DNA from: Candidatus Micrarchaeota archaeon
GTDB lineage: Archaea > Micrarchaeota > Micrarchaeia > Anstonellales > Bilamarchaeaceae
Assembly (NCBI GenBank): GCA_037440825.1
Contig: JBBITJ010000002.1
Span: 23,016-54,478, forward strand
Length of the DNA stretch: 31,463 bases
Direction of reading: 5' to 3'
The notes beneath the pieces are model-generated. The model was not told the DNA's origin and searched no databases. It saw only the letters and a program-made list of their open reading frames with translations. This document shows, in pieces, positions 17,586 through 29,273 of this stretch (position 1 is its first letter; each line of letters starts with the position of its first letter). The position numbers were made by a program, and so were the translations under genes.

Positions 17586-20270
17586 CTAGCGCCTTTCCCC
17601 GTATTCTCTAAGGAACTCTTCGTATTCCTCCAGCATGTCCTTGGTGATGGAGGGTCTGCGGCTGGAGATTATCTTGAGGAGCCCTTCAGTGGTGAGCTTC
17701 GGCGTGCCTCCTCTTATCTTCTGCCTAAGCGCGTCCATTTTCGCAGACTGGACTATTGAGGAAATGTCCGCTCCTGAGAAGCCCTCGCTGTCCTGCGCGA
17801 GCAGGTCCAAATCAATTCCTTTCGCGAAATCCCCGAGGTTTATCTGGAATATCTGCTTCCTTCCTTCTGCATCAGGAGGTGGGATGTAGAATATCTTGTC
17901 GAACCTTCCCGGACGGAGAATAGCTGGATCAAGCATGTCCGGCTTGTTCGTCGCGCCTATCACAACTACCCCCTTCAATTCCTTCATGCCGTCCATTTCC
18001 GTAAGCAATTGCCCTATTATGTCGCTGGACGCGAGCCTGCGCGAGGGTATCATGGATTCTATTTCATCTATGAAGAGGATTGCAGGCGTGTTCTCCTTCG
18101 CGCGGATGAACATCTCCTTCAGCACTGAAACCGCTTGCATTGGGCCTTTCTTCACCAAGTCAGCGCCGCTCAGGGTGATGAACGCTGCTTTCAATTCATT
18201 GGACGCGGCGCGCACAATAAGAGTTTTACCGCATCCTGGCGGGCCGAACAGCAGGATGCCCTTGCTGGGCTTGACCTTGTATTCCTTCATCAGGTCCTCG
18301 TGCAGGAGCGGAAGCTGTATGGTTTCCAGAAGTGCCTGGCGCACGTCTGCAAGCCCTGCGACGTCGTCCCATTTCACCTCGCTCTCCTTCTCCACCCCTG
18401 CCTTCTCGGGCTCTTTTCCGCCTAAGCGGCGCTGGAAGTCGAGCTTGAACTTTTCATAGTCTTCAAGGTGCGCCAGGCTCACCGAGGGCTTGGTTCTGGA
18501 GATTATAGCGAGGAGGTCTTCGGTGGTTATAGGAACCACGGTGTCGCTTTTCTGCGCCTTTTTCGCTACGGATTTGACCGCCTCGTCTATTACGTTCTTT
18601 ATGTCAGCGCCGGAGAAGCGGTCGGTCTTCTTAGCGAGTTTGTCGAAGTCTATTTCCCCTGCAGGGTATTTCTTTATGTGCACCCGGAAGATGGATTTCC
18701 TGCTGTTGTAGTCCGGAAGGGGTATGTAGATTATCTTGTCGAACCTTCCGGGCCGCAGGAGCGCTGGATCCAGCGCGTGCGGGATGTTCGTAGTTCCTAT
18801 TATCATGATGGGCTTCTTGCTGTTCGCAGCGCCGTCTATCTCTTGGAGGAGGACGCTGAGCACCCTTGGGGTAACGTCGTCGCTGCTCGAGGAGCGGGAT
18901 TTGCCTATGATGTCTATTTCGTCGAACATTATTATGCAGGGCGCGTTCTTGCGCGCGTCAGCGAACAATTCCGCGACGTTCTTCTCCGATTCGCCGTACC
19001 ACTTGCTCAGGAGCTCGGACGTGTTCACGTAGTAGAGGCGGTAGCTAATCTCGTTCGCGAGCGCGCGCACTATCATGGTTTTACCGGTACCGGGCGGGCC
19101 GAACAGGAGTATTCCTTTGGGTGGAACGAGGCCGTAGGCGTACGCTAGCTCCTTCTGCTCTATAGGCAGCATTACCGCGTCCTTTATCTCCTCCTTCACG
19201 TCTTCGTATCCGCCCACGTCCGCGAACTTCTCGCTCCCTTCCAGGCTTAGGTCGCGCACCCCGAACTTGCCGAAGGACTTGAGCCTCTCCTTCTTGAGTA
19301 TCGCGCTCTCCTGGCTGAAGTTTATCCCGTTCGCTTCCAGGAGGGCGATTACAGCTATCGAGGCCGCGGTGTAGAAGACGATTTCCTCCTTGAACGTGTA
19401 GCCGTAGACCTGCGAAAGGAAGTAATTGGTGATGGGGATGAGCACAAGGAAAAGGCTTGAATAGAGCTGGGTGTGCTTGCCTTTCTTCAGCCTTCCTGAG
19501 ACGAAGCTTATCATGAAAAGGACGAAGGACCATACGATGAGCTGCGCAACCCCACTGTCCGAGAAAATTATCGTTATGAGGTTCTGGCCGGTCTTCTCCA
19601 GCGCTACGCTGAACTCATTCGCCTTGGAGAAGTCGAACAGCGACTCGACAGCCTTCACGAATTCCACGGGCAGGGAAAGGAGCTGGACTTCGGGCTTGCC
19701 CTTTTGGAGGACCGGAGTAGGATCGTAGAGGCTGAGGTTGATTGGAAGGTAGGCGGAATTGTCCTGCATCCATATCGAAGAGAGGAAGAGGATTATGAGG
19801 ATGGACGGGACGGAGACCAACATGCTCTTGGAGGAGCCGAAATTCAACGCGCTCAGGGTCATGCCCAACATCACAAATCCTCCCAGCAAGGAGACCGGGA
19901 AAGGGGCAAAGGGAAGGAAAATGAGGACTTCCAGCGCGGAGATTATCGCCCAGTGCTCGAACGACTCGAAGAGCACTATCGCGACTATAAGGATGAAGAG
20001 GAAGCCAAGGGAATATGACTGGTATGCGAACGTGGGCAGGGCGAGCAGCACGCTCAGTATGGTGCCCATGGGCGCATACCGGTAGGCGATTCCGCCGCAG
20101 AGCAGCGCGAGAATCGGGACGATGTAAGAGGGATAGAATGGCATCGCGAAAAGGATGGAGAGCGAGCCTATGAAGACGAGAAGCGCGTGCCAGAAGTTCT
20201 CGTCGGCCTGCAATATCTTCGCGTAGGCCTGCACTTTCTGGGAGGAGATGGATTTTTGCTCGTATGGCAT
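17586..20270 (-). CDS. Polytopic membrane protein with two Cdc48/VAT-like AAA+ domains (894 aa)
   Basis: About 9-10 hydrophobic segments in the first ~315 aa. D1: GPPGTGKT / IIMFDEID / DPALLRPGRFD. D2: GPPGCGKT / LFIDEIE / DPAILRPGRFD. Confidence 0.92.
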   Translation of the reverse strand: MPYEQKSISSQKVQAYAKILQADENFWHALLVFIGSLSILFAMPFYPSYIVPILALLCGGIAYRYAPMGTILSVLLALPTFAYQSYSLGFLFILIVAIVLFESFEHWAIISALEVLIFLPFAPFPVSLLGGFVMLGMTLSALNFGSSKSMLVSVPSILIILFLSSIWMQDNSAYLPINLSLYDPTPVLQKGKPEVQLLSLPVEFVKAVESLFDFSKANEFSVALEKTGQNLITIIFSDSGVAQLIVWSFVLFMISFVSGRLKKGKHTQLYSSLFLVLIPITNYFLSQVYGYTFKEEIVFYTAASIAVIALLEANGINFSQESAILKKERLKSFGKFGVRDLSLEGSEKFADVGGYEDVKEEIKDAVMLPIEQKELAYAYGLVPPKGILLFGPPGTGKTMIVRALANEISYRLYYVNTSELLSKWYGESEKNVAELFADARKNAPCIIMFDEIDIIGKSRSSSSDDVTPRVLSVLLQEIDGAANSKKPIMIIGTTNIPHALDPALLRPGRFDKIIYIPLPDYNSRKSIFRVHIKKYPAGEIDFDKLAKKTDRFSGADIKNVIDEAVKSVAKKAQKSDTVVPITTEDLLAIISRTKPSVSLAHLEDYEKFKLDFQRRLGGKEPEKAGVEKESEVKWDDVAGLADVRQALLETIQLPLLHEDLMKEYKVKPSKGILLFGPPGCGKTLIVRAASNELKAAFITLSGADLVKKGPMQAVSVLKEMFIRAKENTPAILFIDEIESMIPSRRLASSDIIGQLLTEMDGMKELKGVVVIGATNKPDMLDPAILRPGRFDKIFYIPPPDAEGRKQIFQINLGDFAKGIDLDLLAQDSEGFSGADISSIVQSAKMDALRQKIRGGTPKLTTEGLLKIISSRRPSITKDMLEEYEEFLREYGERR

Positions 20271-20297
20271 ACGATTGGGATTACCGTATGAGGTTTT

Positions 20298-20657
20298 TTA
20301 ATCGTTATCGCAGGGCCCGAAACGGAATTCATCCTGAACGAAGCCGGAGAGGTTGCCTTCCCTTATGCGCGGAACGCTCGCGCGCGAGGAGGATGCGGAA
20401 TCGGAAACGAGCTTGGATGTCAGGTCGGTCTGGCCCATTTCAATGCACATGCCGGTCTTTTCCAGGATTTCCATCGCGATTTCGTTCCCGATCGTGAGGT
20501 TCTCGAATCCCCCTTTCAGGTAAATTACATTTTTGGCGTCTCCCTGCAATTCGTATATGTATAATGAATTGTCTATCTGCGCATCAGCATGGATGGAAAG
20601 GAACATCGCGAGGGAGAGAAGCGCTGCGAAGGAAAGTAGGGATTCGAGCATTTGCAT
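20298..20657 (-). CDS. Small protein with N-terminal pilin-like hydrophobic helix (MQMLESLLSFAALL...)
   Basis: GGTGA RBS before ATG 20657, 1 nt after the upstream stop. Glu at position 5 followed by a hydrophobic helix. Confidence 0.7.
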   Translation of the reverse strand: MQMLESLLSFAALLSLAMFLSIHADAQIDNSLYIYELQGDAKNVIYLKGGFENLTIGNEIAMEILEKTGMCIEMGQTDLTSKLVSDSASSSRASVPRIREGNLSGFVQDEFRFGPCDND

Positions 20658-20658
20658 T

Positions 20659-21105
20659 TCATTCACCGCAGAAATAGAGCTTTCTTACTTCTCCAGTGGG
20701 TTCGTACACCACTAGGCGGTAGATGCACGTCCCTTCCCCCTCTTCGAAACTTATGGAAAATGATTTGAGGTTAAGGCGCTCGCGCAGGGATTTTTCCAAT
20801 TCGGGAAAGGAGGCTGCGGATACCAGGTTGGGATGGATAGCCTTTTCCGGGAAGCCGCTCCCCTCCGTTTGCGCGGCCCCTATTTTCACTGCGTAATTGC
20901 TCGCTGAAACCAGCTTGTCGAAAAGTATCTGGCGTTCCAAAAGGTCGGAGGTGCGATTTTCCAGCTGGGCGGAGAAAATGAGGGCATAGGAAACGATGAG
21001 GATGATGGGTATTACGGAGAAGAGGAAGTCCGGGGAGACGAAGCCGCGGCTCGCACGTGCGGAATTGGAGGCCGAAAACCTGGGACATTTATACCGGTTC
21101 GCCAT
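20659..21105 (-). CDS. Putative type IV pilin-like protein (class III signal peptide RG|FVSPDFLFSVIPIILIV)
   Basis: Basic leader, RG followed by F, acidic residue at +5 and a hydrophobic helix. GGGGGAG RBS. Overlaps the upstream gene by 17 nt. Confidence 0.7.
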   Translation of the reverse strand: MANRYKCPRFSASNSARASRGFVSPDFLFSVIPIILIVSYALIFSAQLENRTSDLLERQILFDKLVSASNYAVKIGAAQTEGSGFPEKAIHPNLVSAASFPELEKSLRERLNLKSFSISFEEGEGTCIYRLVVYEPTGEVRKLYFCGE

Positions 21106-21406
21106 AGTCTCCCCCTATTCCATATATCGTATAGCCACGGGCATCTGTTCCGGCTTCCTGCACGTACGAGCTTCCGGTCTCGGACTTGAGCGATGAATTC
21201 GTAGAGTAGACGAACCTTTCGTGCAGGATTGATTCCGCGGCGTCCAATGTGCGCGCGAATTGCTCGTTCTCCGCCTTTTCGGAAACCGCGGAGCTGAAGG
21301 ATTTTGACGCTGAAATGAGGGGCTGGAAGGAAGCGAGCAGGATGGAGATTAGCGAGAGCATGAGCAGGAAATTGAGCAGGAATTCAGAGGAAGCTTGGGC
21401 TTTCAT
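21089..21406 (-). CDS. Putative type IV pilin-like protein (class III signal peptide MKA|QASSEFLLNFLLML)
   Basis: Classic archaeal K-A|Q-x-S-x-E pattern followed by a hydrophobic helix. ATGA overlap with the upstream gene (true start 21406, not 21709). Confidence 0.8.
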   Translation of the reverse strand: MKAQASSEFLLNFLLMLSLISILLASFQPLISASKSFSSAVSEKAENEQFARTLDAAESILHERFVYSTNSSLKSETGSSYVQEAGTDARGYTIYGIGGDYGEPV

Positions 21407-22044
21407 TCTGCCGCGCCTGGCACCGTATAAGGCGCCTCGAATATCTTTTCGCTGGTGGGGATGTACGCGACCTTGGAGAGGTTGAATTTTTGCGAATAGA
21501 GCGTGATGCCGAAGATTCGCGGAGTGGAACCGAGGTTTGCCGAGCCCAGGGCGAGGTTCGCGAAGGAGGAATTGGAGAGGACATCCACTTCTATGAAATC
21601 CTTGCACAAGGGAAGGGGGCGGCAAGTCGGGCAGGAAAGGGGTTTCCCTTGCGCGAGGCTGGATTCCGCAATGCGGTTCAGTTCGCTGTTCCCGGATATT
21701 TCGCCGCACCAGAGCGATGCCTCGAAATCCATATCTCCGGCATGCACGAGCGAGAGTGAAGTGATGGCGCCGAGGCGGATGCGCTCCCTTGCTTCCTGCA
21801 TATCGAAGGCCATCGCTCCTCCTGAAGCCGCGATTTCGGCAAGGTATTCCAGGAAGCCTGCCGCTGCACCGTATTTTGCTGCGAGAAGCATACTGCGCTT
21901 CGCATCGAGCGAAAGCTGCTCCGCCCTTTCCAGGGCTATCGCCTTCTGGAAGTTGAGGGATTTGGATTCCCCGTATGCGCCGGCAAGCGCTGCGAGGGCT
22001 GCGAGTGCTGCAAGCACAAGCAGGAATGCGGCATATCCTTTCAT
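21403..22044 (-). CDS. Putative pilin-like or secreted protein (MKG|YAAFLLVLAAL), Cys-containing
   Basis: KG followed by a long hydrophobic helix; four Cys in the C-terminal half. TTTATAA box starts 29 nt upstream. Confidence 0.7.
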   Translation of the reverse strand: MKGYAAFLLVLAALAALAALAGAYGESKSLNFQKAIALERAEQLSLDAKRSMLLAAKYGAAAGFLEYLAEIAASGGAMAFDMQEARERIRLGAITSLSLVHAGDMDFEASLWCGEISGNSELNRIAESSLAQGKPLSCPTCRPLPLCKDFIEVDVLSNSSFANLALGSANLGSTPRIFGITLYSQKFNLSKVAYIPTSEKIFEAPYTVPGAAE

Positions 22045-22077
22045 AATGATGATACAGGAAAAGAAGTTATAAAGAGA

Positions 22078-22110
22078 TTAGAAAGGAAAAGGAAAATAAA
22101 GATGAAAATC
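22078..22110 (-). terminator. T-rich terminator after the VirB2-like pilin gene
   Basis: Minus strand ATTTTCATCTTTATTTTCCTTTTCCTTTC immediately after the stop. Confidence 0.55.
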
Positions 22111-22116
22111 CTGCGT

Positions 22117-22449
22117 TCAGCAGGAGAAACCGCCGCTCGGGTAAAGCGCTCCGAGGATGTTCGGGGTTATGACCACGATCAGGAGGCCGATTACGGCACC
22201 CACGAGCATCGCGGTTGCCCACACGGACGCCCTTGCCCTGGTCTCTGCACCGAGGAGCTGGCCTGCGGCGTAGATGACACCGGCGGAAACAATCATCAGG
22301 AACGAGACTATCGGGATGAGGCCTTTGATGTCGCTGCACAGGCTGGTAAGCGCATTGCTCAGTGCGCTCACGCCTCCCGTGGTCGCGGCTACGAGCGAGG
22401 TCGCGACTGCAAACATAAGGACTGCGTACATAATGGATTTCTTCCTCAT
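22117..22449 (-). CDS. VirB2/TrbC-like (conjugative-type) pilin, 110 aa
   Basis: Signal peptide, amphipathic helix, then two hydrophobic helices joined by a short basic loop (GQLLGAETRARASVW). GGTGA RBS and upstream TTTAAAAA box. Confidence 0.7.
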   Translation of the reverse strand: MRKKSIMYAVLMFAVATSLVAATTGGVSALSNALTSLCSDIKGLIPIVSFLMIVSAGVIYAAGQLLGAETRARASVWATAMLVGAVIGLLIVVITPNILGALYPSGGFSC

Positions 22450-22563: not shown

Positions 22564-24030
22564 ATGGACAAGAACGAGTTTGGGAAACTATCAATAATAG
22601 TGGCGTGCAGCTTCCTCCTCCACCTCGCGTTCATAACTTCGCACCCATTCTACCTGGACGAAGCGCTCTACGCGGAAATGATATGGGAGATGGAGGATCA
22701 TCCGACGCTTGTCCCGATGTTTTTCGGCTACGAGGCGGGGTGGAAGCCGCCCATGTTCTTCTGGACGTTCGCGGCAGCCACAGCGCTTACGCAGCAGATA
22801 TTCAGCAATCCTGAGTTCGCATACAGGCTTCCCAACGTGCTGTTCGCGATGGCGAACGTGGTGCTGTTCCACCTCCTCGCGAGGAAATGGCTCGGAAAGG
22901 AGACGGCGCCGTATGCAACAGCATTCTACGCGTTCTCCGCGCTTTTCCTGTACACGAACGAAAGGCTGCTCATAGACACGCTGGCAGTCACTTTCATACT
23001 TGGCTCGATATGCGCTTACGTCGAGTTGCGGGGCGCCCGCAGGTTCGCGCTGGGAGGCGCGCTCCTGTTCTTTGCCGTGCTCACCAAGTCAGTAGTGGGG
23101 TTCATCGTGCCCGCAGTGGCGGTGGCTTATTTCATCCAGCACGAACGCAGGGAGCTGCTCAATCCCGTGTTTATCCTTTCGCTAGCCGCGATACCGCTCG
23201 CGCTGGGGGTGCACTATTTCAGCCTAAGCCCTGAAGCGGCGCAGGGAATATTCTTCAGGGACATGGGAGGAAAAGTCGTAGGAGACGGCGCGGAGCTGGT
23301 GGAGAGGGTAGGCAGCTCGTTCATGAGCGGGCTCAGCTTCCTCAACGCGCTGCTCGTGCTTTCCGCAGCAGGGCTGCTGCTCAGGTGGAGGGAGAACTAC
23401 GCTATGGCGGCGTGGTACGCGCTCGCAGTCTTTCCTCTGCTGGGAGGCGCTTTCATGGCCTGGTATTTCTACGCGGTGCTTCCTCCGATGGCGTTCTTCG
23501 CCACGCTGCTGATGGCGCACGACCCGAAGACCGGAAAAACCAACATAGACGGATTCTTCAAGTTCGTGTTCGCGCTCGTGATAGGAATTAACATCCTAGT
23601 TTCGCTCCTCTGGTTCGAGCGGCTCATGGACATAGGCGAGCTGAAGATGGTAGGGGAATTCCTCGAAGGAAAAAAGAATGTCGCGTTCGTGGGCAGCTAC
23701 GGGGCGGCGGCGAGCGCAGTGGTTTACAAGGCGCTGGGCGAAAGAGCTGAAAACGGGAGCGCTGAGGACTTCGGGTGGGTGATTGTCCCGATGAACAGCA
23801 TAAACGACACCATGATAAGGGACTTCGCGCTGGACTACCGCACTTCGAAATACGAGGCGAACGAGGAGGATTTCGAGCGGCTGTTCTGGAGCGGCGAGAT
23901 ATTCAGGAAGAAAACCGGCGTGGAGAGGTTCGACTGGCTCGTGGTCAGCGGACCTTCGAAGCCGGAGATAAGCTGCTATTCCCAGGTGTTCATGGGAGAC
24001 GACCTGGCCATTTACCAGAGGGAATGCTAG
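22564..24030 (+). CDS. GT-C fold glycosyltransferase (ArnT/PMT-like)
   Basis: LDEALY acidic motif after TM1, KPPMFFW, RLP, D.L, LTK, many TM helices and a soluble C-terminal domain. Confidence 0.88.
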   Translation: MDKNEFGKLSIIVACSFLLHLAFITSHPFYLDEALYAEMIWEMEDHPTLVPMFFGYEAGWKPPMFFWTFAAATALTQQIFSNPEFAYRLPNVLFAMANVVLFHLLARKWLGKETAPYATAFYAFSALFLYTNERLLIDTLAVTFILGSICAYVELRGARRFALGGALLFFAVLTKSVVGFIVPAVAVAYFIQHERRELLNPVFILSLAAIPLALGVHYFSLSPEAAQGIFFRDMGGKVVGDGAELVERVGSSFMSGLSFLNALLVLSAAGLLLRWRENYAMAAWYALAVFPLLGGAFMAWYFYAVLPPMAFFATLLMAHDPKTGKTNIDGFFKFVFALVIGINILVSLLWFERLMDIGELKMVGEFLEGKKNVAFVGSYGAAASAVVYKALGERAENGSAEDFGWVIVPMNSINDTMIRDFALDYRTSKYEANEEDFERLFWSGEIFRKKTGVERFDWLVVSGPSKPEISCYSQVFMGDDLAIYQREC

Positions 24031-25529
24031 TGGACGAGAAGGCACTGCAACGGATCACGCTCGCGCTGCTCGCAGTGTCCATGGCAATAAACTTCTTCTA
24101 TTTCATCACCAACCCTGAGGCGAAGCTGAGCGGGGACCTGATAGAAACGACTGCTGCAATAAAGCAATTCAACGAATACGGATTCTTCGGATTGAATCCC
24201 ATGTTCGGGGAAAATGGGTACAGGCTTTTTGGGAACTATCCGCCGATTCCGCTGATAATCGGGGGGCTGTTCTCGCTCGTTTTCGATTACAATGTGGTGA
24301 CCGCTGCGATGAGCGTTGCGCTCCAGGCTGCGATATTCTATCTGCTCTATTACCGCGTGTTCAGCAAGGTGGACTTGGAATGGAGGCTGCTGCTATCCGT
24401 GTTCTTCCCGTTTGCGACAGTGTTCGGATTCCCCATGTTCTTCGCGTTCAGGCTGCGCTCGCTCATATCGCTCATATTCATCGTGCTGCTTTTCACGCTG
24501 GACAGGAAGGGAAGGAATTACGGTCCCATGGCGGCCGTGCTTTCCGCAGCTGCGTTCCTTTCCCAGCCGCTCATGGGCATGTTCACGTGGTTTTTCTACA
24601 CAGCCAGGGCAGCGGAGGAGAAAGACTGGAAGACTGCTGGATGGTTCGTTGCTGCACCCATATTCTCTTCGCTGTTCTATCTCGACCTTTTTGCCCAGGT
24701 TGGAGTGGAAAGCGAATTCCTGGGTTCGATCCTGTTCTCTGCTTCGCACACGCAGAACGCGTTCCTGGGACCGGTGTGCCTGATTGCAGTGCTGCTTGTC
24801 GCAGACCTTTCCAGGAATTCCGCGAAAGCTGCTGCGCTCGTGCTCGGCGCTCTTGCGATAATAACCACGAGCATTCTGTTCGGGGTGAATGAGATAGTGC
24901 TTGCTCTCGTACCGTTCAAGCAGGGTCTCGTCTATCCTGTGGCGCTGCTCCCCCTTTCCTTTATCCTCGTTGCGGAATCGGCGCGCGAGGGGAAGATGAA
25001 GAAGAATATGCTCGCCTTCTTCTGGATGGCGATAATCGTGTTTTCCGCAATGGATTTCGGGGCCAAGGCCGCTGCCGAGATGGACAGGTTTTCCGAAGCC
25101 AAGAACGCGGTGGATGCGATGGAGGACGCGGGCATCACGCATATGCTTGGGATAATAGCGCTCATGCATGGCGATGATGTATATTTCATCCATAGCGAAT
25201 ACACTGTTGGCTCTGCCGCGTACGTGATGGGCAAGAATTTCACCTTCATCAACAGGCCGCTCATGGGGCAGATGGACAGAGGAGGAATTTACGAGGAAGG
25301 GGCGCGGCTCATCAGGGACATAGCGGAAAGGGGCGGAGAATGCGAAGAGCTCGCACGGAACGTTTCCGCCAAGACGAGGTATTTGCTCCTGCAGATCGTG
25401 CAGGCGACAGGCGAAGAGGATCCGAAGGGCGTGCTTTTCGACGCATCGTATTTGGAGGGATGCGGGATAGCGGCTGTTGCGAGCAGCGGAACTTACGGAA
25501 TATACGACTTGAAGCCGGTGGCTGGATGA
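24024..25529 (+). CDS. Polytopic membrane protein, probable GT-C glycosyltransferase (paralog A)
   Basis: Acidic GDLIE after TM1, YGFFGLNP..G..GY.LFGNYPP loop, many TM helices. Start 24024 overlaps the upstream stop. Confidence 0.7.
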   Translation: MLVDEKALQRITLALLAVSMAINFFYFITNPEAKLSGDLIETTAAIKQFNEYGFFGLNPMFGENGYRLFGNYPPIPLIIGGLFSLVFDYNVVTAAMSVALQAAIFYLLYYRVFSKVDLEWRLLLSVFFPFATVFGFPMFFAFRLRSLISLIFIVLLFTLDRKGRNYGPMAAVLSAAAFLSQPLMGMFTWFFYTARAAEEKDWKTAGWFVAAPIFSSLFYLDLFAQVGVESEFLGSILFSASHTQNAFLGPVCLIAVLLVADLSRNSAKAAALVLGALAIITTSILFGVNEIVLALVPFKQGLVYPVALLPLSFILVAESAREGKMKKNMLAFFWMAIIVFSAMDFGAKAAAEMDRFSEAKNAVDAMEDAGITHMLGIIALMHGDDVYFIHSEYTVGSAAYVMGKNFTFINRPLMGQMDRGGIYEEGARLIRDIAERGGECEELARNVSAKTRYLLLQIVQATGEEDPKGVLFDASYLEGCGIAAVASSGTYGIYDLKPVAG

Positions 25530-27028
25530 AACGGGTTGCCGAAGCGATAAGGAACGGAGGGATTGCGCTCGCTTTATCCTCAGCCGCGCTCTATTTCGGG
25601 CTGCTCCTCTTCAGCGCCGCAGACATCATGGGCATATACATGTTCTTCCCGGACGTCGGGGAGACGGTTTCATCGGTAAGGATAGTGCACGATTACGGAT
25701 TCTTCGGCACGGTGCCTCAGCTCGGAAACGGCGGCTATTCGTTCTTCGGAAGCATGCCGCCGCTATTCCCTGCGATGGCGCAGGTTATTTACTCAGTTCT
25801 GGGCGACGCGGCGCTCAGCGCGTTCCTGCTGAACGCGATCGTGTCTGTTGCTGCTGCGGCGCTCATATTCCAGGTTGTTGACGGCGGGATGGAGATGAAG
25901 GCACTTGCTGTGCTGCTCCTGCTGGTGAACGTGTTCACAGGCGCGATGTTCCCGTTCGTGGTCAGGGCGAGGTCGCTGCTCGCAATGCTCTTCTTCCTGC
26001 TCGCAATCCACCTGGAGAAGAAGGGAACTGCCGGAAGAGGGGCGTATTTCCTGTGCTTCCTTGCGGCTTTCCTGAGCCAGCCGCTTGTGGCCGGGCTGGG
26101 CGCCGCGCTCCTTTCCTGGAGGATTTTCGCTAGAGGGGGCGACAGATGGAAGCTCGCTGCGATGGCGCTCGCGCTGGCTATTTCGATACCTTTCTATTAT
26201 AAGCTCATGGTGGGCGCAGGTGCTGAGCCGAGGAGTCTGGGCAGCTCGGCTTACGACGTGCGCAACGACACTCTCATCCCGGTGTATGGAACCGCGTTCC
26301 TCGCTTTCTCATCCGCCCTCCGAGGAAAAGAGAAGAATGAGGCGCTTCCTGCGCTCGCATTCCTGCTGCTGCCGCTCGCGAACACGGCAAGCTATATGAT
26401 TACCGGAAGGCTGGACCAGACGTTGTTTGCGAACGTGCTGTTCGGCTCGGACCTCGTATATGCGGCGTTCTTCGCGCCGTCCGCGGCGTTCCTGCTCTCT
26501 TTTTACGGCTCGAGGCTGAGCAGAAGCAAGATTGCAGCAGGGCTGCTTTTCGCCATCGCTGGAATAGGCGTGGCAGGGACCTACGGATACGTGCTTCACG
26601 GCGCGGCGGACTTCCAAGACAAGATGCAGCTCATCGAAGGAATAGACGAGGCGGCTTCTAAACTGCTCGTCGTGCCGGCGGTTGAAAGCGGCGGGAAAGT
26701 TTGGATGATACACGGGGACTTCATGATAAGCGGGCTCGCCGTCGCTACAGGCAGGAACATCTCCTTCGTGGGCAATTTGATTCCGCCACAGCTGGACAAG
26801 GGTCCGGAATTCAGCGCGGCGATGGAGCTTGCGAACGGGAATGTTTCCGATTGCGATGGGCTGGTCGCGGGCATGGGTGATGCGGACATGCTCATATACA
26901 TCACGAACAGCCCTAAACTGAACTGGAAGCTGGATGGCTGGGCGAAGGAGTGCGGGTTGGTGAAAAAGGAGTTCGGAACTTCTTACGGCGGAGCCATCGC
27001 TGCGTATTCCATACCTAAGGACGGCTAG
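25526..27028 (+). CDS. Polytopic membrane protein, probable GT-C glycosyltransferase (paralog B)
   Basis: PDVGE, YGFFGTVP..G.GGYSFFGSMPP, R.RSL and AAFLSQPL shared with the preceding gene. ATGA overlap. Confidence 0.7.
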   Translation: MKRVAEAIRNGGIALALSSAALYFGLLLFSAADIMGIYMFFPDVGETVSSVRIVHDYGFFGTVPQLGNGGYSFFGSMPPLFPAMAQVIYSVLGDAALSAFLLNAIVSVAAAALIFQVVDGGMEMKALAVLLLLVNVFTGAMFPFVVRARSLLAMLFFLLAIHLEKKGTAGRGAYFLCFLAAFLSQPLVAGLGAALLSWRIFARGGDRWKLAAMALALAISIPFYYKLMVGAGAEPRSLGSSAYDVRNDTLIPVYGTAFLAFSSALRGKEKNEALPALAFLLLPLANTASYMITGRLDQTLFANVLFGSDLVYAAFFAPSAAFLLSFYGSRLSRSKIAAGLLFAIAGIGVAGTYGYVLHGAADFQDKMQLIEGIDEAASKLLVVPAVESGGKVWMIHGDFMISGLAVATGRNISFVGNLIPPQLDKGPEFSAAMELANGNVSDCDGLVAGMGDADMLIYITNSPKLNWKLDGWAKECGLVKKEFGTSYGGAIAAYSIPKDG

Positions 27029-28548
27029 CCCCTGCTGTAGTAGACGACCGTGGAATTGCTCACGTTGAAATAAACCGGCGAGTAGTTCGAATCCAGGAAC
27101 GACTTGAACTCCGAGAGGCTGGCGGGGGAAAAGGAGGAGAGGTCGAAATCTGACTGGAAGAAAAGGACGTGGTCCGGCATGCCATCTTCAACCGGCCGCA
27201 TCACTTTCTCTTCGAACCATTCCCGGCTCTTCGGGAATCCGGAATCGGAATGCTGGAATATCAGGGGCATGAACGGCTCTTTGCCTAATATTGTGTAGTA
27301 TGCTCCGCGGCTGGGGAAGACGAAAAATGAGCCTTCGGAATGTTCCTTAAGGTATTGGATCATTTCGCCGTTGCTGCCGCAGAACGAGACATGGTTGTTC
27401 GTGGAGAAGTGGGATGCGGCAAAGGAGGGAAGCAGCAGCATCATTGCCAGGAGAGGGAAAAAGATCGCTGACGCGGGCAGCGCCACAGAGCCTAGGAGCT
27501 CGCGGATTCCGGCCTTCTGGGAGCATTTGCGCGCCGCAGGCGCGAGCTCGGAAATTGAAAGTGTCCATGCGAAAGATGCTGGAAGCAGGTAATAGGAGAG
27601 CACGAGCACGTAGAAATGGAAGGAGAATGCCCTTGACAGGAAGAGGACTATGGTGCTGAGGAAAAGCAGCAGCACTGCGCCTTCGAAATGCCCCTTTTCC
27701 TTTTTCATCATGAAAGGAAGGGCTGGCGCGAGGAAGAGGAATGACAGAACCCCATAAATCGGGGCGGAGAGCATCCACGAGAAGGAGCTGAAATACTCGA
27801 TGAATTCCGCAACGCTCCAGCCGTTCGCCTGCGCCGGGAACCCGGAGAGGTTCAGGAACAGGAAGGAGATTGCGAGGAGGGGAATGGCTGCCGAGAGGAA
27901 GCCTGCTGACGCCCAGAGCGCGGATTCGCGCGGGTTTCCGGATTTCGCGATCGCGTAAAGAATAGGCAGGGCGAGGGCCGCTGCGGAGAGCGGCTTTATG
28001 AAAAGGGGGAGCGCAGCGAAGAAGCAGGCGAGGAATATTGGGCGCGGCCTCCTTTCGTCCATGGATGATATAAGGAAATGGAATGATGCTGCCCAGAAGA
28101 GAATTGTGAAGAGCTCGGCGCGCAGGAACGCGTTGAGCCCGAGGAATAATGCGAAGAATATGTAAATCAGCGGAGGCAGATACTTGTAAATGCCGCCCAT
28201 TCTCTGTGCGGAAGTGGCGAATATTATAGCGGCGATTAGGAAATTCAACGCGAGCGAGATGCCCCTTATGCAGCCCATGGACGTGCCGCATGCGCCTACG
28301 ACCAGATAATCAAGAGCGTGGAGAAGGGGAAGCTTGTTGTCGTAAACGTCCCTGTACAGGACTCCGCCCTGATGCATGATTTCAGCCACGAGGACGTACA
28401 TGCCCTCATCATGCTCTATGAGCCCGCAGGAGAACATCGGGAAAGAGAGCGGAAGGAACGACAGGGCTGCGAGGATTGCGAGGAACGACCAATGCTGCCG
28501 CACGAATTGCGCAACGCCGCTTGATTCGGGCTTTATGGGTGGACGCAT
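27025..28548 (-). CDS. GT-C fold glycosyltransferase (ArnT-like)
   Basis: EHDEGMY, LYRDVYDNKLPL, AELF, FIKP motifs, many TM helices, extracellular C-terminal domain. Confidence 0.85.
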   Translation of the reverse strand: MRPPIKPESSGVAQFVRQHWSFLAILAALSFLPLSFPMFSCGLIEHDEGMYVLVAEIMHQGGVLYRDVYDNKLPLLHALDYLVVGACGTSMGCIRGISLALNFLIAAIIFATSAQRMGGIYKYLPPLIYIFFALFLGLNAFLRAELFTILFWAASFHFLISSMDERRPRPIFLACFFAALPLFIKPLSAAALALPILYAIAKSGNPRESALWASAGFLSAAIPLLAISFLFLNLSGFPAQANGWSVAEFIEYFSSFSWMLSAPIYGVLSFLFLAPALPFMMKKEKGHFEGAVLLLFLSTIVLFLSRAFSFHFYVLVLSYYLLPASFAWTLSISELAPAARKCSQKAGIRELLGSVALPASAIFFPLLAMMLLLPSFAASHFSTNNHVSFCGSNGEMIQYLKEHSEGSFFVFPSRGAYYTILGKEPFMPLIFQHSDSGFPKSREWFEEKVMRPVEDGMPDHVLFFQSDFDLSSFSPASLSEFKSFLDSNYSPVYFNVSNSTVVYYSRG

Positions 28549-28556
28549 TTGGACGC

Positions 28557-29273
28557 CTAGGTGAGCAGGGATCTGCAGTATGAAAGCACGTGGAAGGCGC
28601 TTATCTTGGACGAGCCGGATTTCCTCAGGCCGAAATCGTATCTTATTTCAGAAATCTTGGTGCCTGCCGGCAGCTGCTTGAGCACGTCGAAAAGGAGCTT
28701 GTAGCCCCTCATGTTTATGCGGCTCTTGTCCACTTTGGAGAACAGGGTTTTTTTCATCCCGAAGAAGCCGGACATTATATCGTACCTCCAAGGCTTGCCT
28801 CTGATGGCGAGGGAAATTGAGCCAAGAGCGTTGGCGCCTGCGCTTATGAGCCAACGAATAGCTGACCAGTCCTTCGTAGATGCGCGCGAAGCGATCACTA
28901 TGTCGGCAGCCGAACGGTCGAACTCGCGGATAATCTCCCCTACTTTCGCAGGAGGGTGCTGGAAATCGCCGTCCATAACTATGAAGCGGGCGGTTTTGCA
29001 TTCCTCTATCGCGTGGACCACGCTTGCGACGTTCCCCTTCACTTTTTCCCCGCTTCTGTCCAAGAGGGAGATGCGGCCGGAGGCGGATTTTTCCAGCCCA
29101 CGCACGAGCTCGCGCGTGCCGTCCGTGGAGCCGTCGTCGGAAAATATTATGCTTATGCCGGGGTAGAGGGACTGGAGCTCCTTTGCCAAGGGAACCGCAT
29201 TGCCGGATTCGTTGAGCACCGGGATTATTATCGTGTAGCCTTCGAAGCTGCTGCCTGTTTCTGGTTCTGGCAT
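28557..29273 (-). CDS. Polyprenol/dolichol-phosphate sugar synthase (DPM1-like GT2)
   Basis: IIIPVLNE, DDGSTDGT, VMDGDFQHPP, VIASR, DIMSGFF, GYKLL, R..GSSK. Confidence 0.9.
   Translation of the reverse strand: MPEPETGSSFEGYTIIIPVLNESGNAVPLAKELQSLYPGISIIFSDDGSTDGTRELVRGLEKSASGRISLLDRSGEKVKGNVASVVHAIEECKTARFIVMDGDFQHPPAKVGEIIREFDRSAADIVIASRASTKDWSAIRWLISAGANALGSISLAIRGKPWRYDIMSGFFGMKKTLFSKVDKSRINMRGYKLLFDVLKQLPAGTKISEIRYDFGLRKSGSSKISAFHVLSYCRSLLT

Follow-up and report, generated by a model that had tools for sequence, protein, structure and literature searches.

A six-gene run in a Micrarchaeota genome

The stretch of DNA described here, referred to below as the window, comprises 31,463 nucleotides of a Candidatus Micrarchaeota archaeon genome (GCA_037440825.1; contig JBBITJ010000002.1, our contig C2, positions 23016-54478). 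The source genome amounts to 875 kb in 45 contigs and is 95.6% complete, and database relatives of the proteins encoded in the window are named Candidatus Micrarchaeota or Micrarchaeia. Six co-oriented genes on the minus strand encode a VirB2/TrbC-like small membrane protein, four small proteins with type IV pilin-like N-termini that we refer to as p213, p103, p148 and p122, and a membrane-anchored ATPase with two AAA modules (Table 1). An earlier reading of the sequence, hereafter the original prediction, proposed that these genes constitute a single surface or export machine in which the AAA protein could serve as both platform and motor. Homologues of all six genes are conserved in related genomes, and we consider the chances slightly better than even that in this genus they are three separate neighbours: a minor-pilin-like operon that acts in trans, a member of a VirB2-like family, and a membrane-bound paralogue of Cdc48.

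The four small genes overlap or abut. The stop codon of p213 and the start codon of p103 share a common ATGA, the p148 ATG lies 17 nt ahead of the p103 stop, and a single nucleotide separates the p148 stop from the p122 ATG, with the ATG of the AAA protein following 27 nt after the stop of p122. We set the start codon of p122, an ATG, by family comparison; in the list of open reading frames (ORFs) the gene begins three codons earlier, with the GTG at 20666. The positions, shared orientation and junctions of the six genes agree with the original prediction, as do the N-termini quoted for the four small proteins, namely MKG↓YAAF, MKA↓QASSEF, RG↓FVSPDF and MQMLES (arrows mark putative processing sites).

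In the spacer ahead of p213, the T-rich run lies directly 3' of the VirB2-like stop codon and the TTTATAA box is located 23-29 nt upstream of the p213 ATG; a consensus scan also detected a terminator-like hairpin with a T-tail at 22125-22109. Both elements reported in the original prediction can therefore be seen, with terminator and promoter as their presumptive functions, and the VirB2-like gene appears to be monocistronic, ending in a T-rich stop of its own. The 19 further window ORFs that we scanned are housekeeping, transport or glycosyltransferase genes, and PilB, TadC, prepilin peptidase, VirB4 and relaxase genes are absent among them, as had been claimed.

Table 1. Genes and putative signals of the six-gene run (positions within the window).
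Feature	Position	Strand	Basis
VirB2/TrbC-like small membrane protein, 110 aa	22117..22449	-	ORF and family alignment
Spacer with T-rich terminator-like run (~22081-22110) and TTTATAA box (22067-22073)	22045..22116	-	Direct sequence reading
p213, largest pilin-like protein	21403..22044	-	ORF, alignment, AF2 model
p103, pilin-like, class III motif K-A↓Q-x-S-x-E	21089..21406	-	ORF, alignment
p148, pilin-like, R-G↓F-x-S-x-D	20659..21105	-	ORF, alignment
p122, pilin-like, N-terminus M-Q-M-L-E	20298..20657	-	ORF, start by family comparison
Membrane-anchored double-AAA ATPase, 894 aa	17586..20270	-	ORF, Pfam, PDB sequence search

Four small genes form a conserved cassette

Single-sequence searches identified p213 in 35 of 61 related genomes. 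We fetched 20 p213 places with approximately 6 kb on each side, which gave a set of 22 loci that includes the window, L047 and L127-L146. Iterated profile searches found p213, p148 and p122 in all 22 of these loci and p103 in 21, and the order p213-p103-p148-p122 is identical throughout. This cassette is usually single-copy and its genes are translationally coupled. Its flanks consist mostly of housekeeping genes, including those for Rpo7, an aminotransferase, thiolase and thymidylate kinase, the commonest neighbours being Rpo7 upstream (9 loci) and the aminotransferase downstream (5 loci). A gene for a surface-layer (S-layer)-like protein adjoins the cassette in family f10. The listings returned by a literature search included no description of the cassette or of a membrane-anchored archaeal Cdc48, and the available text of PMC4158269 has no bearing on them; these genes may be among the scattered DPANN pilins in tables S3-S5 of PMC13705601.

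Two of the loci exhibit variations in architecture. The cassette is split in L128 (G036:C1:489600-502200), where three unrelated genes, including that for eIF2-gamma, lie between p148 and p122. In L130 (G030:C1:93400-106000), p103 was not found and p213 ends 4 nt before p148, giving an apparent three-gene cassette.

The N-termini of the four proteins are conserved across alignments of 18 to 21 sequences each. A short, positively charged leader that ends in G or A and precedes a hydrophobic helix is conserved in p213, p103 and p148, and an acidic residue at position +5 is present in p103, p148 and p122, and absent from p213. Type IV pilins that form filaments are characterised by the acidic +5 residue and by the Q+1/E+5 motif, and some minor pilins lack that acidic residue. 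In p103 (18 sequences), K/R-A/G is followed by Q-x-S/T-x-E with invariant Q+1 and E+5, and a GEP[VI] motif is conserved at the C-terminus; eight of the 18 members also yield weak matches to PF04021 (Class_IIIsignal; best E 0.0012, below the cut-off) and three yield weak matches to ComGE, with a weak ComGF match as well. In p148 (20 sequences), K/R-G/A precedes F-x-S-F-D, the D at +5 being found in at least 90% of sequences, and an invariant pair of Cys residues lies in a C-terminal CIYRLV...KLYxCG motif. The N-termini of p148 and p103 align in register (hhalign probability 88%, 43 columns), and the 28 relatives of p148 in the database are Micrarchaeota proteins without exception, each of them unnamed or labelled 'hypothetical'.

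The N-terminus of p122 (21 sequences) reads M-Q/K-T/L-L/I-E, with E5 invariant and the initiator Met as residue 1. Most members lack a leader, while the orthologues of family f10 retain a KG or RG leader, and in these the residue aligned with the Met of the window protein is the first mature residue. From these alignments, p122 appears to have lost its class III leader and kept E5.

The largest of the four proteins, p213, begins with M-K/R-G followed by Y/F-x-S/T-F-L-L-V and has a conserved WCG motif and conserved Cys residues (21 sequences). Its AlphaFold2 (AF2) model, which has a mean predicted local distance difference test score (pLDDT) of 90.8, comprises a long helical N-terminal part, with helices at residues 3-28 and 33-73, followed by a five-stranded beta-sheet. 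Type IV pilins and pseudopilins account for 17 of the 50 matches listed in a VIA-wide fold search. The best match is GspK (Z 4.6, root-mean-square deviation [rmsd] 2.9, 88 residues aligned), at Z values that are low throughout and with GspK tied with other pilins; a Foldseek search of the PDB with the same model gave nothing at E ≤ 0.001.

None of the cassette proteins of the window matches a Pfam or NCBIfam family above its cut-off, and p213, p148 and p122 match no curated family. Leads to DUF7286, DUF7287 and the 'TadE family' were rejected: a genome search with DUF7287 matched only the N-termini of other pilins, and DUF7287 itself is weakly matched by one of the 20 p148 members. A complex prediction for the four proteins gave evidence neither way, as one control came too close to the score obtained. 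The conserved class III-type N-termini, together with the modelled fold of p213, nonetheless support the view, put forward in the original prediction, that all four are type IV pilin-like proteins.

Pilus machines are encoded elsewhere in the genome

In the source genome, contigs C6, C11, C14 and C23 each carry a strong PilB-type gene, and TadC-type genes occur at four loci, two each beside PilB at C6, C11 and C14 and also at C9. There is one gene for an A24 prepilin peptidase, and eleven further ORFs have K/R-G-Q-x-S/T-x-E N-termini, most of them near the PilB loci. PilB-type genes occur in 201 of 201 genomes of the phylum. None of the 22 fetched cassette loci includes a gene for PilB, TadC, an A24 peptidase or a HerA-like protein, and around the ATPase or cassette in 41 sources the sole find was a PilB-like gene, close to the ATPase of L065. 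One ORF of 759 aa (C14:2037-4316), upstream of a PilB/TadC locus, has an N-terminal class III motif, RRGQVSVEF, and is a candidate for a large pilin-like adhesin.

The cassette resembles bacterial minor pilin and pseudopilin sets (GspH-I-J-K, FimU-PilV-W-X and ComGD-GG) in that it comprises four small co-transcribed proteins with an N-terminal hydrophobic helix, of which three are acidic at +5 and the largest is not; GspK likewise has no acidic residue at this position. It differs from these sets in showing no significant sequence similarity to them, in its short, archaeal-type K/R-G/A leaders and its one leaderless member, and in lying by itself, with housekeeping genes around it, at a distance from any ATPase or platform gene. 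There is also a likeness to archaeal system 1 (Epd-like) pili, both in the Q-x-S-x-E of p103 and in the three PilB loci that each have two platform genes. The class III signal family of that system (PF04021, QxSxExxxL) sets the cassette apart, as p103 remains below its cut-off and the other three proteins are outside any curated family. According to the available text of a 2026 survey (PMC13705601), DPANN archaea have the pilus ATPase and platform genes adjacent to one another with scattered pilin genes, and system 1 machines, including those of DPANN archaea, have two platform genes. The source genome fits both of these statements.

We propose that three of the cassette proteins would be cut by the single A24 prepilin peptidase of the genome, and that p122 would remain uncut and need no cleavage, its initiator Met being at position +1 from the outset. 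Through their N-terminal helices the four proteins may then come together as a tip or priming complex of minor pilins, with p213, which has no acidic +5 residue, at its top. Such a complex would work on a PilB/TadC machine encoded elsewhere, these machines polymerising the ordinary KGQxSxE pilins, and its role would likely lie in the attachment of a host-dependent archaeon. If this is correct, Micrarchaeota carry a conserved and unannotated four-protein pilin-like set, and host-attachment pili may well have this set as their tip or priming complex; one member of the set has apparently dispensed with its prepilin leader.

The same observations have to be weighed against a role for the cassette outside pili. 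The four proteins could be pilin-like at the N-terminus only and belong, as pseudopilin-like or bitopic envelope proteins, to a short secretion pseudopilus or to an envelope or S-layer-associated complex. The distance of the cassette from PilB and TadC in 22 loci would suit such a role, as would the S-layer-like gene beside it in family f10, the leaderless p122, the absence of any curated family at cut-off, and the conserved pairs of Cys residues, which suggest extracellular globular domains. We nevertheless regard this explanation as distinctly unlikely: the acidic +5 residue in three of the four proteins and the Q+1/E+5 motif are features of pilins that form filaments, the fold matches of p213 include pilins and pseudopilins, and scattered pilin genes are what the available text of PMC13705601 reports for DPANN archaea.

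A membrane-anchored relative of Cdc48

The last gene of the run encodes the membrane double-AAA ATPase anticipated by the original prediction. Residues 1 to ~345 (19236-20270) constitute a polytopic helical domain of approximately ten helices, and Pfam places two Cdc48-type AAA modules, D1 and D2, from about residue 350 onwards; residues 1-340 have no Pfam match, including none to CDC48_N. Sequence searches of the PDB retrieved p97 and VAT (E 1e-157 to 1e-119). In an alignment of 24 family members, the Walker A and B motifs are intact in both rings, a pore loop of the form K/Q-W-x-G-E-S-E is present in D1 only, the ring next to the membrane domain, and the loop of D2 is degenerate (K-x-G-Y/P-x-Q-A-V). 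The score against TIGR01243 is 483.9 bits, below the cut-off of 802.65. The C-terminus (...EYGERR) appears unlike the HbYX motif of proteasome docking.

The N-terminal domain was modelled with a pLDDT of 89.6, and a Foldseek search of the PDB with this model returned nothing at E ≤ 0.001. Likeness to the S components of energy-coupling factor (ECF) transporters, the best matches of a VIA-wide fold search (Z 9.9, rmsd 3.8, 143 residues aligned), was rejected as within helical-bundle noise, so that on the evidence of the model the domain is without a clear structural relative. A TadC-like platform was likewise rejected as an identity for it: hhalign against the TadC profile of the genome gave a probability of 0.14%, neither T2SSE nor T2SSF is among the best 25 of 56 Pfam families for the AAA protein, and genome-wide searches with PF00437 and PF00482 gave no match in the AAA gene. 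No platform protein appears among the listed matches of the fold search, an absence that by itself speaks neither for nor against such an identity.

Like Cdc48, VAT and p97, the protein has two classical AAA modules in tandem, with their Walker motifs intact; it differs from them in having the ~345-residue polytopic domain in place of CDC48_N. A canonical Cdc48 with CDC48_N is encoded by another gene, on contig C26, which is the only CDC48_N match of the genome. FtsH and Msp1 are functional analogues, in that each has a membrane anchor beside a pore-loop ring; the window ATPase has no protease domain, and its D2 pore loop is degenerate. Archaea are not known to possess FtsH.

The N-terminal domain defines a narrow family (79 representatives in 1.84 billion). 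The ATPase was found in 56 of 61 relatives, in all 32 high-quality genomes and, across the phylum, in 166 of 201 genomes, mostly with one match each. Its architecture is evident from these comparisons, and its most likely function would be that of a general membrane-protein extractase or unfoldase in which the ~ten-helix domain holds D1, with its canonical pore loops, against the membrane. The phylum has a single-copy paralogue of Cdc48 fused to a membrane domain, and this paralogue is a candidate archaeal membrane-protein extractase. Structural studies, and proteomic work in the small number of Micrarchaeota co-cultures, could profitably be directed at either this protein or the cassette.

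Some orthologues of the ATPase (e.g. L022, L033, L035 and L040) occupy open frames of ~1400 aa, one of 1958, and Pfam recognises intein and LAGLIDADG domains in a database member (P0010). Given the long frames and these domains, inteins have entered the gene in several lineages.

The ATPase and the cassette are mostly unlinked

Conservation of the gene neighbourhood, the check proposed with the original prediction, showed that homologues of the ATPase are generally unlinked to pilin-like genes. When 19 ATPase loci were fetched with 5 kb of upstream sequence, the cassette was found in the same-genus locus only. We then combined by hand the listed places of the ATPase and cassette matches. The two lie within ~6.2 kb of each other in 13 of the 62 genomes that contain both, 40-353 kb apart on the same contig in four, and on different contigs in 45. 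The 13 genomes belong to genera g1 (4), g12 (6), g18 (1) and g32 (2), and only g1 has the ATPase and cassette directly adjacent: an aminotransferase gene intervenes in g12, a VirB2-like gene in g18, and in g32 the ATPase is upstream of the cassette with an S-layer-like gene in between. The arrangement is unfixed even within g1. In another locus of this genus (L146, G003:C33:1-10505), the ATPase is inverted and convergent with the cassette, and a 188-aa ORF lies between them.

The phyletic patterns of the ATPase and the cassette disagree in both directions. Families f13 and f14 have the ATPase in 52/56 and 34/36 genomes (86/92 together), with no match to either the p213 profile or the p148 profile (0/56 and 0/36 for each; cassette 0/92 together). 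Conversely, the ATPase is absent from families f16, f17 and f20 (0/6, 0/10 and 0/4), in which the p213 profile finds 4/6, 6/10 and 2/4 genomes and the p148 profile 0/6, 2/10 and 1/4. These tallies include two unpublished genomes, G080 (f13) and G222 (f14), both with the ATPase and no detected cassette; the picture is unchanged without them.

Under the single-machine proposal, the double-AAA protein would act as platform and motor to extract, assemble or retract the pilins, and it draws on the shared orientation of the genes, the 27 nt between the last pilin-like gene and the ATPase, the recurrence of proximity in four genera with different arrangements, and the position of the D1 pore loops beside the membrane domain, which would suit the pulling of membrane proteins. 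The low frequency of proximity, the conflict between f13 and f14 on one side and f16, f17 and f20 on the other, the intervening genes in three of the four near genera, the ordinary PilB, TadC and peptidase genes elsewhere in the genome, and an N-terminal domain devoid of similarity to TadC all count against it. In addition, a block of eIF2-gamma, GT2 glycosyltransferase and PMT-like genes flanks the VirB2-like gene and cassette in g1, g13, g18 and family f4; as genera with and without an adjacent ATPase have this block in common, inherited synteny accounts for part of the proximity. We consider a single machine very improbable, and the idea of the AAA protein as a pilus motor is not supported, whereas the caveat in the original prediction that the linkage could be incidental is in our judgement the better reading. 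The abutment of ATPase and cassette is a local gene arrangement that does not amount to a conserved machine, and it offers a caution, as tight abutment in one small genome failed to predict a conserved functional unit.

Several observations weigh against treating the ATPase, the cassette and the VirB2-like gene as mere neighbours. Mapped onto a tree of the ATPase N-terminal domain, which is a gene tree and not a species tree, the 'near' label needs four changes, and none of 500 label shuffles required as few; the four near genera do not group as sisters on this tree. There is therefore more proximity than random placement would give, which leaves room for a functional tie in part of the phylum. 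In 45 of the 49 genomes labelled 'not near', the two genes are on different contigs, and f13 and f14 may have cassette homologues too diverged for the two profiles used. The 27-nt gap has no visible promoter, which suggests co-transcription in this genome; given a spacing this short, cassette and ATPase probably share a transcript in this genus. The identification of the cassette as a minor-pilin set is also weakened by the fold matches of p213 (best Z 4.6, and nothing from Foldseek at E ≤ 0.001), by structure models that cover only p213 and the ATPase N-terminal domain, and by the lack of any cassette locus adjoining a PilB/TadC machine.

Because proximity recurs in four non-sister genera and a pore-loop ring lies beside the membrane, one reading in which the ATPase and the cassette are functionally connected keeps a slim chance of being correct. 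In part of the Micrarchaeota, this genus with its abutting genes included, the membrane-anchored Cdc48-type ATPase might have been recruited to pull pilin-like N-terminal helices from the membrane. It would then retract or disassemble filaments, or clear unassembled subunits, as a motor unrelated to PilB/PilT or VirB4.

A multicopy VirB2/TrbC-like family

A Sec-type signal peptide opens the protein encoded by the first gene of the run. Two hydrophobic helices come next, with the loop GAETRARAxVWAT between them, and the C-terminus carries a Cys. Both the loop, which is cytoplasmic, and the C-terminal Cys are invariant in the family. The best match in a profile search of the PDB is TrwL (E 0.14). 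Among 29 family members, 16 have weak matches to PF18895 (T4SS_pilin; best E 1.7e-4) and 12 to PF04956 (TrbC; best E 5.9e-6). The window protein itself scores 12.1 bits against PF18895 (E 0.22; cut-off 26.6) and 18.3 bits against the NCBIfam TrwL family NF033899 (E 0.0022; cut-off 100), and it reaches the curated cut-off of none of PF04956, PF18895 and NF033899. The assignment as VirB2/TrbC-like made in the original prediction is therefore supported by a resemblance that is consistent and sub-threshold.

In its signal peptide, its two hydrophobic helices and its short basic loop, the family is like VirB2/TrbC pilins, including archaeal TedC and CedA1; it differs from them in being multicopy with tandem arrays and in being rarely found near VirB4/HerA-like genes. 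Signal peptidase I also processes TedC, according to the available text of PMC9905601. Members of the family occur in all 61 related genomes at 1-9 matches per genome, often in tandem. HerA/VirB4-like genes lie near two of 76 VirB2-like loci that were drawn independently from named metagenome-assembled genomes. The window has neither a VirB4-type nor a VirB6-type gene, and the HerA/VirB4-like genes of the source genome are on other contigs. No VirB6-like neighbour of the family was identified.

Eight of the 22 cassette loci, from at least six genera, have a VirB2-like gene no more than ~6 kb from the cassette. Among the 76 independent loci, 12 contain cassette members, three of these also contain the ATPase, and 64 have neither; in the 12 loci the VirB2-like gene is directly upstream of the cassette, 2-2.5 kb upstream, or directly downstream. 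This association, together with a PMT_2-like GT-C gene alongside in g1, g13, g18 and family f4, could be taken to mean that the VirB2-like gene and the cassette, perhaps with the GT-C and GT2 glycosyltransferases, form a surface module that makes a mixed filament or envelope structure or glycosylated pilins, and to which the ATPase is unrelated. Set against this are the 14 cassette loci that have no VirB2-like gene within the same distance, the 64 VirB2-like loci without a cassette member, the multiple copies of the family, which raise the probability of chance adjacency, and the monocistronic appearance of the VirB2-like gene in the window. Type IV pilins and VirB2-type pilins are also known to assemble by different routes. 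On balance, a shared surface module seems to us unlikely, and we retain the view that the VirB2-like gene is a separate neighbour of the cassette.

Two HerA/VirB4-like ATPases of the source genome, at C7:19583-21214 and C9:29829-31523, match the DUF87, AAA_10 and TraG P-loop families. These are candidate partners of the VirB2-like family, and neither adjoins a VirB2-like gene. The family itself (the window gene and loci L097-L126 and L171-L246) varies in its terminal regions and copy arrangement: in most members the mature part has a Cys close to its beginning, long C-terminal extensions rich in Gly and Cys occur in some copies, and tandem arrays reach up to seven copies in one locus.

Upstream of the VirB2-like gene in the window, and divergent from it, a run of genes at 22564-29273 encodes large polytopic proteins of 488, 584, 562 and 507 aa. 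The first of these (488 aa) matches PMT_2/PMT, and a GT2 glycosyltransferase gene follows the run. Glycosylation of pilins or of the envelope by these PMT-like and GT2 neighbours is a possibility.

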